From IMG/VR virus record IMGVR_UViG_3300049046_000039, positions 1-64,000 of that record: a stretch of 64,000 nt of DNA, one strand, 5' to 3'. A program made the translations under genes and the position numbers. The stretch comes from a virus. How positions within the stretch are numbered: the first letter of the stretch is position 1; every line of letters starts with the position of its first letter. The notes beneath the pieces were generated by a model. It was not told the origin of the DNA and made no database searches. It saw only the letters and a program-made list of their open reading frames with translations. This document shows positions 39,529-57,413 of the stretch, in pieces.

Positions 39529-39546
39529 ACAAATTTTCCTTGAAAA

Positions 39547-39874
39547 GTGGTGGGATTCTGTTGCTAGGTTCCCACCGGACCCCAGGACTCACTGCTTAGG
39601 CAGCGAGCGCAAGGACATTGTTGTCGTTTGCGGTTATTTTGTGTGGGCCTTAGCGTGGACCCAAACGATCTTCTCAGTCTAGCCTTCAGCGACCATCGAT
39701 CCTAGTTCGGCCCCATCAGAAGCAGTGGTTGGAAGTCTCTTCATACCAACTTTCATTAAGATCGTCTATAGCCAACCTTAAGACCGTCACTGCTTCTGGT
39801 GGAGCCGCCGGGTACTGCCCCCGGGTCTGATCTCCTATCGTTCAACTTCTGGCATATCTCTATGCCGCGAAGAT
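39547..39874 (-). ncRNA. ssrA: Two-piece (circularly permuted) tmRNA, alphaproteobacterial type; ends approximate
   Basis: T-arm and CGGCTCC-A-CCA (39797) precede the 5' GGGGCCG (39714); G3:U70 pair; tag ORF ANDNNVLALAA* at 39596-39631; promoter TTGACA-N17-TATAAATA. Confidence 0.92.
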
Positions 39875-39905
39875 AGAGTATTTATAACATAGCTTGACTA
39901 AAATG

Positions 39906-40217
39906 TCAAGGCCTTTTTTTGCGTCTCTTAATCATAGTCAAGAGCTTGTTCTCAACCTTAGACTTCTTGTTGTTGCAACCTGCGCAGATAAGCTGCCAGT
40001 TGTCTTCTTCGTCTGGTCCACCAAGACACTGAGCCACCATGTGGTCTACACTAGCCTGAAGCGCCCAAGGCTTCTCTTCGGAGTGCTCGATGTGCATCTC
40101 CTGCTCGCATATCCAGCAAGTCTTGTTCTTACGCCATTGGGTCATCTTCCACTGAAACTGTGGATACATCTTTTGCATACGCCTAGCGTGGCCGGCGTTC
40201 TCGTATACGATAGGCAT
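39906..40217 (-). CDS. HNH endonuclease
   Basis: CWIC...SVDH.....GG.....NWQLICAGCN..K. Confidence 0.85.
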   Translation of the reverse strand: MPIVYENAGHARRMQKMYPQFQWKMTQWRKNKTCWICEQEMHIEHSEEKPWALQASVDHMVAQCLGGPDEEDNWQLICAGCNNKKSKVENKLLTMIKRRKKRP

Positions 40218-53523: not shown

Positions 53524-54129
53524 TCAGAGATTGTGAGTATACTGACCGAAGTTCGGATGGCCGTATTGCTCTCGACGAGCCTTGATCTTGGCGCGAAGCT
53601 CGCTGAGCTCGATAGGACGATAGTCGATCTGCTCGACAGAGACGTTCATGTACAGAGGATCTGGCCAGTATGTGTACTCATTGTCGAATGAGTTAAAGTC
53701 TCGCTTCATTACTTCATTAGCGTGAAGGTGACCGTGAACGTTAACGTTCCAGCGCTGAGTTACCGACTCGGGGTGAAGTGGGACGTGCGAGAGGACCATG
53801 TCTTCCAGAACACGAACGCCATAGACTTCCTTGAAGTACTTCAAGTAGTCTTTGATCTTTCCATTGTCGTGGTTGCCACGAATCAGACGCTTAGAACCGT
53901 TAAGTCTCTCGAGAGTCGAGAGAAACTTAAGATTGATCACTACGTCTCCGAGGTGGTAGACCTTATCCTGCTCTCGTACCACCTCGTTCCAGCGACGCAC
54001 CATCTCTTCGTCCATCTCCTGAGCATTAGCGAAGGGACGAAGTGGCGAACCATCTTTGCGCTTGAACGTCGTGCAACACTTTTCGTGGCCGAAGTGAGTG
54101 TCAGAAATAAAGAAGATGTTCGCCGACAT
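53524..54129 (-). CDS. Calcineurin-like metallophosphoesterase
   Basis: SDTHFGH, LGD, GNHD, SH.P, HGHLH. Confidence 0.92.
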   Translation of the reverse strand: MSANIFFISDTHFGHEKCCTTFKRKDGSPLRPFANAQEMDEEMVRRWNEVVREQDKVYHLGDVVINLKFLSTLERLNGSKRLIRGNHDNGKIKDYLKYFKEVYGVRVLEDMVLSHVPLHPESVTQRWNVNVHGHLHANEVMKRDFNSFDNEYTYWPDPLYMNVSVEQIDYRPIELSELRAKIKARREQYGHPNFGQYTHNL

Positions 54130-54233: not shown

Positions 54234-55391
54234 TCAAACAATAATGTGAGGAACGAATTTTGCAGTATTGCTAGTAATGAGGCCGTCCTCACGAATGCCC
54301 ATACCTACTGCAGCACCGTCGACCGACCAGACGCCGAGTACGGGATACTTACCACTGAACTCAGGAAGAGAGTAGCGCTCTTGATAGACGTAGCCGTCAG
54401 AACCGTACTCGCCACCGGTCGCGCTAAGAGTCTTACCGAACTGGTCCTTGACAAGGATGTTCGAACCTTCGCGAGCCAGAATAGGCTTCGAGACGTATCC
54501 GCTGGAGAAGTCACGATTGTTGACCGGAACTTCGAAGCTTGCGGCAAGGAGGTTCTTATGATTTGGGAACATCTTCCACAGAATCGGAAGAATCGCCTTG
54601 TTAGACCAGATCATCTTCCAGACAGGTTCGATCCACGTGGTGATGTCGGCTGAAGCGAGAATGTTGTTAGCGAACTTCTCGTTGACCATCCACTCCCAAG
54701 GATAGAGATGCTGAATCGTCGACATATGGTAATTGTCGAGATCAACGAAAGCTTCGCCATCCCAACCGATGTCGTTGATCAGAATACCGTGACTGATGAT
54801 GCCGGCTTCTTCTGCCATATCTCGCATGTAGGAGACATTGACGGCATCTTCACCGGCACCATCGTCGGCGTGAGTAAACCAGACGTGCTTCTCAGGAAGC
54901 AGAGGAGCGATGTACTTCCAGCGCTCGACGATAGCTTCGTGAATGCCATTGAACTGATCCACGCCCTCGCCGAACATGTCGTTCTTCCAGTGCCATTGGA
55001 CTACCGAAGCTTCGAGAAGACTGGTCGGAGTGTCGCAGTTGAACTCGAACATCTTGGGGTCGGTGCGACCGTCATAACCAAAGTCGAAGCGACCGTAGTT
55101 AAGAGCCGGTGGCTCGCTATCCCAAGTGTCGATAATGTACTGGTGGAAGTGAGGAGGAATCCCAAACTGGTTGAGGATGTGGTAGTTAGAGACGATATAG
55201 TCTCCAGCTACAATCATCATCTTGTAGCAGTTGTTAGCCGCTTCCTCAATTCTCTCGATGTCTGAAGACGAGAATGCGTAGTATGCGTCCTCGTTCCAGT
55301 AAGGTTCGGCCGAAGCACTGTGCCAGAGAAGACCCTGACCCTCGACGATCGCCTTCCAATTGTGGCGAGGAGTTGAAGAGTGACGCAGCAT
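54234..55391 (-). CDS. Glutathionylspermidine-synthase-family ATP-grasp protein (YgiC-like)
   Basis: YW.E..YY; GRFDF; FEFNCDTPTSLLEAS; LYPWEW; EP.WK...SNKA; KP...REG.N; GIRED. Confidence 0.9.
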   Translation of the reverse strand: MLRHSSTPRHNWKAIVEGQGLLWHSASAEPYWNEDAYYAFSSSDIERIEEAANNCYKMMIVAGDYIVSNYHILNQFGIPPHFHQYIIDTWDSEPPALNYGRFDFGYDGRTDPKMFEFNCDTPTSLLEASVVQWHWKNDMFGEGVDQFNGIHEAIVERWKYIAPLLPEKHVWFTHADDGAGEDAVNVSYMRDMAEEAGIISHGILINDIGWDGEAFVDLDNYHMSTIQHLYPWEWMVNEKFANNILASADITTWIEPVWKMIWSNKAILPILWKMFPNHKNLLAASFEVPVNNRDFSSGYVSKPILAREGSNILVKDQFGKTLSATGGEYGSDGYVYQERYSLPEFSGKYPVLGVWSVDGAAVGMGIREDGLITSNTAKFVPHIIV

Positions 55392-55768
55392 TACGAAGAC
55401 GCCGAACCGTACGAGCTGGCCGAAGAGCCGAAGCCGCCGCGCTGGACGGTGCTGTTGCTCTTGGTGTAGCTGGTAGAGGAAGGCTTGTTGTATGTGCCAT
55501 AGCTGCGAGGAATGGTAGAGCCGTACGCAGGAACTCGCTGGCCATTGTTCATGAAGAACATGCCGTAGTATCCGCCGCCACCACCCGAAGAACCACGGCA
55601 GTAGCTGTCAGCTACACGCTTGTTAGTGCGCTTGTCGACACATGCGGCGTTGCGACGCTTATCGTCATCATCGTCGTCGTAGTAGTCCGTACGAGGCTGA
55701 CCACATCCAGCAACGGTCACTGCGAGAGCGGTAGCGACCGCCGTGGTAATATTCAGAGTCTTCTTCAT
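55391..55768 (-). CDS. YgiB-like lipoprotein
   Basis: Lipobox VAGC; C-terminal TVQRGGFGSS; coupled to the YgiC-like gene. Confidence 0.75.
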   Translation of the reverse strand: MKKTLNITTAVATALAVTVAGCGQPRTDYYDDDDDDKRRNAACVDKRTNKRVADSYCRGSSGGGGGYYGMFFMNNGQRVPAYGSTIPRSYGTYNKPSSTSYTKSNSTVQRGGFGSSASSYGSASS

Positions 55769-55823: not shown

Positions 55824-56507
55824 TTAGTACTGGTCGAACTTAAGCAAATTATATCCTCTTAGCAAGCCGCGCTTATGTTCTTCCAGAGGATATACTCCAA
55901 TCGAAGTCTTTTGATTTCCGATGTCCGGTTCTCTAAACACTACGTATGGAACTTTCATGCTCCCCAGAACTTTCTCTACTTCTTCGAGCTCGTACGCGTT
56001 ACGTACTCCGCAGCAAGTAAAGTGTAAGCCCTTAACGAGTTCTGGAGACTTTTGAGCGATGAGTGCGCCAAGTTCGAGAGCAGCGTGAGACGTCTGAACC
56101 AGCTGATACTCGTCGAAGATGTCTTGACGAGTGAAGAAGTAGGAGTACCTCCTGATCAGGAGCGCTCTATTTACGCTTAATCTAAGCGCGTGAAGCTCGG
56201 CGTGCTCTTCTTCGGTCAGAACTTCAGCAGCGTTTTGACCTAGAACAAAGTTCTTCAGACCAATGAGCATGCCGTTGTAGTTGTTGGTGATTGCGTCGAA
56301 TGGAACTCTACCGTTCGCCAGCTTGGACACCTTACTGACCGGAGGAAATGCTCGACGGAGAAGGTGAATGGCGATGTCTCTCTTATCGTCGAGAGATTCT
56401 GCACGGGAGTTGATAGCCTTTAGAAGACAGTAGTCGATCATGTCTCGCGTAGTGTTCTTCTTTTGAGAGGCGAGAGTCTTCCAGGCGGTTTTGTAATCAA
56501 AGTTCAT
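55824..56507 (-). CDS. Protein with a C-terminal peptidyl-tRNA hydrolase type 2 (PTH2)-like domain
   Basis: Y.F.RQDI....Q.VQ..HA; F.EPDIG...T.I...P; AAGGA RBS before ATG 56507. Confidence 0.7.
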   Translation of the reverse strand: MNFDYKTAWKTLASQKKNTTRDMIDYCLLKAINSRAESLDDKRDIAIHLLRRAFPPVSKVSKLANGRVPFDAITNNYNGMLIGLKNFVLGQNAAEVLTEEEHAELHALRLSVNRALLIRRYSYFFTRQDIFDEYQLVQTSHAALELGALIAQKSPELVKGLHFTCCGVRNAYELEEVEKVLGSMKVPYVVFREPDIGNQKTSIGVYPLEEHKRGLLRGYNLLKFDQY

Positions 56508-56578
56508 TATTGAATTCCTTAATCTTGAGTAATATAACACGTAATAAAACAAATGTAAATAACATTTTTACGGTAAGA

Positions 56579-56608
56579 TTAAGGCGGGCCGGTTGAGTTC
56601 TAACGCAT
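56579..56608 (-). CDS. Leader mini-ORF M-R-(TAG)-N-S-T-G-P-P-stop
   Basis: AGGAG RBS and TAATG coupling; ATG CGT TAG AAC TCA ACC GGC CCG CCT TAA. Confidence 0.65.
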
Positions 56609-56859
56609 TACTCTTCTCCTGATATTGTTGCGACACCGTCAACAATTTCTACCGAGCACTTCTTGAGCTTGATAGAGCCTTTGGTGTGTGAGTTGTCTGG
56701 AGTTTCTTTTGTAGAGAAGCCGATGTTACAGTCGACATGGTCTACGTAAAACGTCTGCCCTTTTAGTTTAAGAACCCACATGGGAATCTTAGGATCGGCT
56801 AGGTGACCCTTATTGAAGTGAAATACTACTTCTTTACAGTTCTAAAAAGTCTGCTTCAT
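56608..56859 (-). CDS. Conserved-looking phage protein with an in-frame amber at codon 6 (83 aa on readthrough)
   Basis: AAGGA RBS; MKQTF*NCKEVVFHFNKGHLADPKIPMWVLK...STKETPDNSHTKGSIK...; missed by the ORF track. Confidence 0.75.
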
Positions 56860-57336: not shown

Positions 57337-57413
57337 TGGTGCGCGTGACGGGACTCGAACCCGTGACGTCATGATTTTAGAGATCACCGCTCTTCCAACT
57401 GAGCTACACGCAC
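57337..57413 (-). tRNA. Amber suppressor tRNA (anticodon CUA)
   Basis: GTGCGTG-TA-GCTC..GAGC-G-GTGAT-CT[CTA]AA-ATCAT-GACGTC-ACGGG-TTCGAGT-CCCGT-CACGCGC-A-CCA. Confidence 0.9.

Follow-up and report, generated by a model that had tools for sequence, protein, structure and literature searches.

We describe here a putative translational control element in a 64,000-nt stretch of phage DNA (positions 1 to 64,000 of IMG/VR virus record IMGVR_UViG_3300049046_000039; hereafter the window), which is a portion of a 115.8-kb IMG/VR phage contig with a completeness estimate of 64%. The element is a leader mini-open reading frame (ORF) of 10 codons that is interrupted by an in-frame amber (TAG) codon, ends in Pro-Pro-stop, and lies 5' of a gene for a 227-aa protein with the fold of peptidyl-tRNA hydrolase 2 (PTH2). 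The minus strand is the coding strand for every gene across 53.5-59 kb of the window, and the order along it from position 57413 downward is a tRNA with anticodon CUA (tRNA(CUA)), a 154-aa ORF (phrog_2290, function not known), an 83-codon gene, the mini-ORF, a 71-nt spacer and the 227-aa gene. The features at this locus are as follows.

57337..57413, minus strand: tRNA with anticodon CUA, 77 nt, with A73 and an encoded CCA (ARAGORN; Rfam tRNA, 59.2 bits)
56608..56859, minus strand: 83-codon gene with a strong Shine-Dalgarno (SD) sequence and ATG, an in-frame TAG at codon 6 (56844-56842) and a TAA that overlaps the leader ATG
56616..56620, minus strand: SD of the leader, AGGAG, 7 nt 5' of the leader ATG
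56579..56608, minus strand: leader mini-ORF M-R-UAG-N-S-T-G-P-P-UAA (ATG CGT TAG AAC TCA ACC GGC CCG CCT TAA)
56575..56584, minus strand: 5' arm of a hairpin, CCTTAATCTT (= CCUUAAUCUU), made up of the second Pro codon, the stop codon and 4 nt
56531..56559, minus strand: sigma-70 or T4-early-like promoter, TTTACA-17-TATATT with a TG-extended -10, in the 48-nt hairpin loop
56517..56526, minus strand: 3' arm of the hairpin, AAGATTAAGG (= AAGAUUAAGG), including the SD of the 227-aa gene
55824..56507, minus strand: regulated gene for the 227-aa protein, with a helical N-domain (residues 1-117; 56157-56507) and a PTH2-fold domain (residues 118-227; 55827-56156)

An earlier note on this DNA, made by a model from the letters alone, had claimed the mini-ORF, the perfect complementarity of its last bases to a segment holding the ribosome-binding site of the downstream gene, and a promoter of this layout inside the loop, and all three are present. 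The leader runs from its ATG (56608-56606) through the gating TAG (56602-56600) and the Pro-Pro codons CCG CCT (56587-56582) to the stop TAA (56581-56579). Pro-Pro thus stands directly before the stop codon (CCG CCT TAA, a YbeL-PP-type motif), and the leader ends T-G-P-P, with the Arg-(Ala/Gly)-Pro-Pro core absent. The upstream gene's TAA and the leader ATG share bases (TAATG), as they also do at the related locus L008, and SD-like sites are likewise found 5' of the leader ATG in L007, L008 and L078 (L numbers denote loci collected in this analysis). The arms CCTTAATCTT and AAGATTAAGG are perfectly complementary over 10 bp; the SD of the downstream gene is AAGGA (56520-56516), and the 3' arm holds its AAGG, 8 nt from the ATG at 56507. 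Besides this leader, the gene strand of the 115.8-kb contig has no other ATG-started TAG..PP-stop ORF, and the leader/SD pair is among only three inverted repeats of at least 10 nt within 90 nt in a 5-kb stretch. Taken as a single copy, the arrangement is weakly beyond chance. The single-sequence statistics are unremarkable, and it is the relatives that lend the arrangement its significance.

In metagenomes there are 62 full-length homologues of the 227-aa protein, 0 of which are annotated. Scans of viral and metagenome sequences yielded 148 loci, and the loci examined below are those in IMG/VR or JGI metagenomes. We collected 19 unique N-domain genes by a protein hidden Markov model alone and inspected the 170 nt upstream of each only afterwards. 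The mini-ORF is conserved: a start..TAG..Pro-Pro ORF was found upstream of 19/19 of these genes, with Pro-Pro directly followed by a stop in 12, and the same pattern with TAA or TGA in place of TAG was found in 0/19 each. Similarly, a strict form of the pattern occurred 20 times on the gene strand of 68 viral loci, against 0.98 occurrences in shuffled sequences (maximum 4); in the same loci the TAA version occurred 0 times, the TGA version once, and versions with other dipeptides 0-5 times. The leaders of the relatives whose proteins share 46-54% identity with the 227-aa protein read as follows.

L005: M-N-TAG-Q-L-A-Q-P-P-TGA
L006 and L007: M-R-TAG-F/L-K-P-P-TAA
L008: M-L-R-TAG-N-S-T-G-P-P-TGA
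L078: M-T-TAG-L-S-T-G-P-P-TGA
L073 (5' end lost at the contig end): ..T-TAG-P-F-K-P-P-TAA

The stop directly follows Pro-Pro in 7/7 members of this close clade. Across loci the frame is preserved despite variation in length, with 1-9 codons 5' of TAG, 2-7 codons 3' of it, and a total leader length of 7-19 codons. The Pro codons differ in their third base (CCG CCT, CCT CCC, CCA CCT and others) and the first of them lies outside the stem, which argues that Pro-Pro is conserved as a feature of the peptide and not merely as an anti-SD sequence. The TAG-gated leaders end in TAA (20), TGA (4) or TAG (2), and the pair ending in TAG, whose arms match badly, are probably fortuitous. The base after the gating TAG is A in 19/28 leaders; TAG followed by A is a context that favours suppression. 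Leaders ending in RAPP or RGPP were found at L031, L041, L044, L075, L076 and L077. At the last two, both from metagenomes, the leader arises as an extension by read-through of the TAG that ends the upstream gene, with no separate mini-ORF (L076, ..TAG..TAG..R-A-P-P; L077, ..TAG..R-G-P-P). Contigs from sequencing runs added only a 99%-like relative, whose leader is identical.

Outside this collection, a pattern scan with TAGAACTCNACNGGNCCNCC returned the known relative L008 and chance hits only, and no Rfam family matches the leader. Distant homologues of the PTH2 domain occur in the cultured jumbo phages RaK2, RsoM2USA and XacN1, with no leader or tRNA(CUA) seen beside them. Rhizobium phage RHph_I1_18 has a tRNA(CUA) and an unannotated homologue of the amber-gated 83-codon gene, with no PTH2-like gene detected by tblastn, and we found no cultured host-phage system that carries the whole module. 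We are highly confident that the leader is a real, translated, TAG-specific element tied to a suppressor tRNA.

The pairing between the end of the leader and the downstream SD was compared across 26 unique leaders by computing duplexes between a window of 27 nt placed at the PP-stop and the last 30 nt ahead of the downstream ATG. The mean duplex energy was -12.7 kcal/mol for cognate pairs versus -6.6 kcal/mol for non-cognate pairs; the cognate partner was the best of the 26 for 12 leaders and ranked 2 or better for 20. For the leader in the window the values were -13.6 versus -5.5 kcal/mol (rank 0). When the segment from Pro-Pro to the ATG was folded alone, the PP-stop/SD hairpin was the minimum free energy (MFE) structure in 8/8 close relatives, in which the 3' arm ends 3-9 nt 5' of the ATG. 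The pairing is also maintained by differing sequences, a check that the earlier note had named. A change of the stop from TAA to TGA is matched by TTAAGG to TCAAGG (L005, L078), a change from CCT to CCA is matched by AAGG to ATGG (L073), and divergent extensions of the arms all remain paired (CTTGAG/CTCAAG in L007, CTTAATT/AATTAAG in L006, ATAGGT/ATCTAT in L078). A formal count on a MAFFT alignment of eight sequences gave 78% of cells paired with three two-sided changes, and slid controls all gave 52% or less. In the leader region MAFFT puts L078 or the 5' ends out of place, which makes this count conservative, and anchor-based duplex tests were used instead. In an occupancy model, opening of the SD region cost 6.5 kcal/mol in free mRNA, 6.8 kcal/mol when a ribosome occupied the gating TAG and 1.7 kcal/mol when it occupied the leader stop; the corresponding values for the leader in the window were 4.0, 9.1 and 3.9 kcal/mol.

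The promoter in the loop has its predicted transcription start within the 3' arm, so its transcripts would not contain the 5' arm. A single promoter-like match of this kind is within shuffle expectation, and the -35/17/-10 layout is kept in 6/8 close-clade members, L005, L006, L007, L008 and L009 among them. The layout is absent from L073, L078 and distant relatives with short loops, and the hairpin is for this reason probably older than the promoter, which would add an ungated route to expression of the 227-aa gene.

The stop codon that gates the leader is linked to the tRNA encoded nearby. tRNA(CUA) is the commonest tRNA adjoining these loci (61 of the tRNAs found; 58/118 unique loci) and lies immediately 5' of the leader in L005, L035 and L044. 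The sole locus with a tRNA(UUA) is L094 (tRNA at 1327-1400), and there the leader (1810-1836; ATG ACA TAA ATA TTT AAA CCA CCA TAG) reads M-T-TAA-I-F-K-P-P-TAG, an ochre-gated twin of the L048 leader M-T-TAG-I-F-K-P-P-TAA in which the terminal stop has been swapped as well. This match of anticodon and stop is the case that suppressor gating would predict, at n=1. Within its own genome the window's tRNA(CUA) is closest to Arg(UCU), at only 79%, and no amino-acid identity is assignable. Genome-wide recoding of amber codons was considered and rejected: TAG terminates 10/130 long ORFs, and ORFs interrupted by TAG show no excess (6 candidates, versus 3 for TAA and 5 for TGA). The conserved putative read-through sites are only two, and they are adjacent, one in the 83-codon gene and one in the leader. 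A further candidate amber-interrupted ORF was noted inside a tRNA array at contig 98248-98481 (minus strand), where a strong SD (AAGGA) is followed by M-N-P-I-G-T-G-H-T-I-G-TAG and 65 open codons.

The 83-codon gene belongs to a family with the same kind of gate. All 49/49 unique viral homologues have a TAG 2-12 codons after an SD and ATG, and never a TAA or TGA, with TAG-A context in 45/49. Between the TAG and a strongly conserved V-F-H-F-N-K block downstream of it there is no alternative start, and a tRNA(CUA) is found within 1.5 kb in 35/49. The homologues (L153-L232 and L001:2962-3210, minus strand) are mostly ~190 aa long. Neither the 83-aa protein nor its longer homologues had a match in Pfam or PHROGs, and a 77-aa beta domain had no match above Z 3.8 or a Foldseek E of 1. 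From this arrangement it appears that the members of this small conserved family could be made only via amber read-through.

The product of the downstream gene had been called PTH2-like in the earlier note, a description that is correct at the level of fold and superfamily and is a prediction as to activity. An AF2 model of the 227-aa protein (pLDDT 90.9) matched archaeal Pth2 and human Bit1 in Foldseek with probability 1.0 (TMt 0.72-0.76), and a VIA comparison with 1wn2 gave Z 14.0 and a root-mean-square deviation of 2.2 over 106 aligned aa. The single sequence has no Pfam hit (15.4 bits for PTH2 against a cut-off of 23) and only a weak 'hydrolase' match in PHROGs (phrog_3668, E 0.0049), and a profile of 21 family members matched the peptidyl-tRNA hydrolase 24bt_A in the PDB with E 5.6e-6. 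The catalytic residues of S. solfataricus Pth2 are a Lys that precedes helix 1 and an Asp in the D-A-G loop. In the phage family the V-Q-x-x-H-A helix motif is retained and an invariant E-P-D is aligned at the catalytic Asp loop, and the position of the canonical Gly-Lys aligns to Gln/Glu. No fold match of the N-domain exceeded Z 5, and the ESM Atlas held no usable match for it. The two domains are separate adjacent genes in other phages, where the leader lies 5' of the N-domain gene, and at some distant loci the leader lies 5' of a different small ORF situated after the PTH2 gene. The most likely activity of the protein is hydrolysis of a peptidyl- or aminoacyl-tRNA ester tied to suppression or to the stalled leader, and its candidate roles are to feed back on the suppressor, to act in rescue once read-through has occurred, or to free the stalled leader.

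Two lines of published work bear on how the end of the leader might act. In Escherichia coli, C-terminal Pro-Pro before a stop codon arrests termination in every context tested, and this arrest leads to stop-codon cleavage and ssrA tagging, the arrested complexes being substrates for rescue (PMC3834316). Arrest by RAPP/RGPP sequences requires the Arg, since it is essential and an AAPP variant is arrest-defective, and elongation factor P gives no relief (PMC12992588). The earlier note had invoked both motifs. Of the two, only the Pro-Pro-stop termination defect (PMC3834316) could act at the leader in the window, because this leader ends T-G-P-P and carries no Arg there. As the stop always comes directly after Pro-Pro in the close clade, the pause would be one of termination and not an elongation arrest.

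We propose a model, to which we give a probability of about 0.72, in which the leader acts as a translational attenuator and takes as its input the suppression of amber codons by the tRNA(CUA) that the phage encodes. Ribosomes on messages transcribed from upstream would initiate at the leader ATG via AGGAG, or re-initiate at TAATG after translating the amber-gated 83-codon gene, and would synthesize Met-Arg before reaching UAG. If release factor 1 wins, the ribosome would depart ~18 nt before the 5' arm, leaving CCUUAAUCUU/AAGAUUAAGG paired and the SD masked. If tRNA(CUA) decodes UAG, elongation would continue via N-S-T-G-P-P to UAA, where the C-terminal Pro-Pro would slow termination. The paused ribosome, its P site on CCU and its A site on UAA, would then sit on the 5' arm and leave the SD free for translation of the helical-domain/PTH2-fold protein. 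Short transcripts from the loop promoter, without the 5' arm, would be ungated. Read-through, the pause, occlusion of the SD in vivo, the polarity of the switch (on with suppression) and the role of the protein are in this model predictions from sequence. The proposal in the earlier note that only a ribosome reading through the amber reaches PP-stop and frees the ribosome-binding site draws support from the conserved mini-ORF and the conserved pairing, whose lack among relatives the note had named as part of a refutation. Its further ideas, a leader that responds to release-factor status and a PTH2-like protein that services the suppressor tRNA, stay conjectural.

Several observations weigh against this model. 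The 126-nt leader region of the window folds no better than shuffled sequences (z = -0.18), its proposed stem appears in the centroid structure and a competing fold is the MFE structure, and its own hairpin is weak and AU-rich. In the formal pair count the eight closest sequences did no better than column shuffles (105/500), a consequence of the small clade and of one misaligned row. Even with a modelled ribosome at the leader stop, the SD in the window still requires 3.9 kcal/mol to open. A 9-residue peptide ending T-G-P-P-stop may pause the ribosome too briefly, or may drop off instead. Finally, the loop promoter may provide the bulk of the expression, leaving the gate a minor role.

An alternative that we consider unlikely is that the arrest is relieved by the product of the regulated gene: the PTH2-like protein would resolve short peptidyl-tRNA that has stalled at, or dropped off from, Pro-Pro-stop, the gene would thereby regulate itself, and the amber codon would only limit entry. 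In this reading, unsuppressed translation of the two-codon M-R-stop would resemble a lambda bar-type minigene and would also yield peptidyl-tRNA. The leaders are indeed very short (7-19 codons), and short peptidyl-tRNAs drop off readily. The regulated gene encodes a PTH2 fold, the phage encodes a transfer-messenger RNA (tmRNA), and Pro-Pro-stop complexes are substrates for rescue (PMC3834316). However, the two-codon form is not kept among relatives, which have 1-9 codons before TAG and a frame that continues to PP-stop; replacement of the canonical Pth2 Gly-Lys by Gln/Glu leaves the activity uncertain; and feedback by the product does not account for an internal stop that always matches the neighbouring suppressor tRNA. 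Such relief is compatible with the attenuator model as an additional feedback loop.

Much less probable is a switch that works through decay, in which read-through leads to A-site mRNA cleavage and tmRNA action, so that the message is destroyed (the opposite polarity) or the 5' arm is cut off (an irreversible activation). Pro-Pro-stop arrest does cause stop-codon cleavage and ssrA tagging in E. coli (PMC3834316), and the phage encodes an alpha-type tmRNA, but there is no sign of cleavage in the sequence, and steric unmasking is the simplest explanation for a stall site that overlaps the SD-pairing arm in one relative after another. Marginally the least probable is that the hairpin is a constitutive insulator that blocks translation from read-through transcripts while expression comes from the loop promoter, or that the inverted repeat acts as a DNA operator flanking that promoter, with the mini-ORF in either case a by-product of anti-SD CCUCC/CCUU; the promoter between the arms in 6/8 close-clade members, the similarity of CCU-CCN to an anti-SD and the unremarkable fold statistics of the single sequence fit these two readings, but they leave unexplained the in-frame ATG..TAG..PP in 19/19 genes with 0/19 for TAA or TGA versions, the conserved first Pro codon that lies outside the stem and varies in its third base, the persistence of hairpin and leader with short or promoter-less loops (L073, L013, L031, L035, L041, L044), and the ochre-gated twin that adjoins a tRNA(UUA).

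Returning to the attenuator model, we suggest as a tentative extension, which we hold to be somewhat doubtful, that the phage maintains a private 'amber regulon' in which tRNA(CUA) is a regulatory signal, and not a means of altering the genetic code, for at least two adjacent conserved clients, the leader and the 83-aa/~190-aa protein, whose synthesis would require decoding of a TAG at codons 3-6. The two-domain PTH2-fold factor under the leader's control would be dedicated to the suppressor tRNA, or to ribosomes stalled on its account, and would hydrolyse the peptidyl or aminoacyl ester, closing a homeostatic loop on read-through.

The leader shares its architecture with the ermC/cat, SecM-secA and MifM-yidC2 leaders: a short upstream ORF with its own SD, a stall site at the 5' arm, an SD in the 3' arm and a paused ribosome that opens the hairpin, the last being a proposal here. 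It differs from them in its input, which would be UAG decoding by a phage suppressor tRNA instead of an antibiotic or secretion activity, and in its 10 codons and a proposed pause at termination after Pro-Pro. Like the RAPP/RGPP arrest peptides ApdA, ApdP and ApcA (PMC7897499, PMC10951233, PMC12992588), it is a small upstream ORF with a C-terminal Pro-Pro core, but it ends T-G-P-P and has neither a signal peptide nor a long nascent chain. The in-frame UGA of prfB is likewise an early in-frame stop that senses termination versus alternative decoding; there, a +1 frameshift within the same gene senses RF2, whereas here suppression by a dedicated tRNA would unmask the SD of a separate gene. In engineered switches for unnatural amino acids, with TAG placed in tna/trp leaders, a downstream gene is on only with tRNA(CUA) read-through (PMC6412442); those act through transcription termination, while the phage leader is natural and would act on translation. 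In code 15 phages, where TAG is read as Gln, phage-encoded suppressor tRNAs also read TAG (PMC9523058), but in the present genome TAG is otherwise a stop. Residues 118-224 of the 227-aa protein have the fold, the V-Q-x-x-H-A motif and an E-P-D in common with archaeal and eukaryotic Pth2 (PF01981; 1wn2, 2zv3, 1xty and human Bit1, 1q7s), and depart from them in the replaced Gly-Lys and in a ~115-aa helical domain, fused or encoded adjacently, with no clear match to a known fold. In the full-text literature we found no natural example of such a read-through-gated leader; leader-peptide attenuation is a known kind of control, and the read-through input is apparently new.

If the model is true, the leader is a natural sensor of nonsense suppression, a cis-element that switches a gene on only with stop-codon read-through, and phages with a standard code can employ a suppressor tRNA as a regulatory channel in place of wholesale recoding. 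This would bear on why many large phages carry tRNA(CUA). The analysis also supplies a function-linked context for a large unannotated PTH2-fold family that adjoins phage suppressor tRNAs. For genetic-code-expansion circuits, in which the same logic has already been built artificially, the leader would be a compact natural part.

The wider contig encodes 33 tRNAs, including a dense minus-strand array of ~31 tRNA genes at contig 91081-101872, outside the window. It also encodes a tmRNA, which lies in the window.

39546-39913, minus strand: two-piece tmRNA of alphaproteobacterial type (Rfam RF01849, 130.8 bits; ARAGORN tag ANDNNVLALAA)

The type of this tmRNA suggests an alphaproteobacterial host for the phage, and the sole cultured relative of the contig at the DNA level is a Rhizobium phage. 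The tmRNA is a possible rescue route for Pro-Pro-stop stalls. Downstream of the PTH2-like gene, the next gene is a Gly/Ser-rich lipoprotein-like ORF (window 55391-55768), followed by genes for a glutathionylspermidine-synthase-family protein (window 54234-55391, minus strand; PF03738, E 2e-130) and a calcineurin-like phosphoesterase (window 53524-54129). The final codons of the PTH2-like gene contain a perfect 10-nt inverted repeat (55850-55859 / 55885-55894) with a spacing of 25 nt, which might form a 3' stem-loop or help to control the ORF at 55391-55768.

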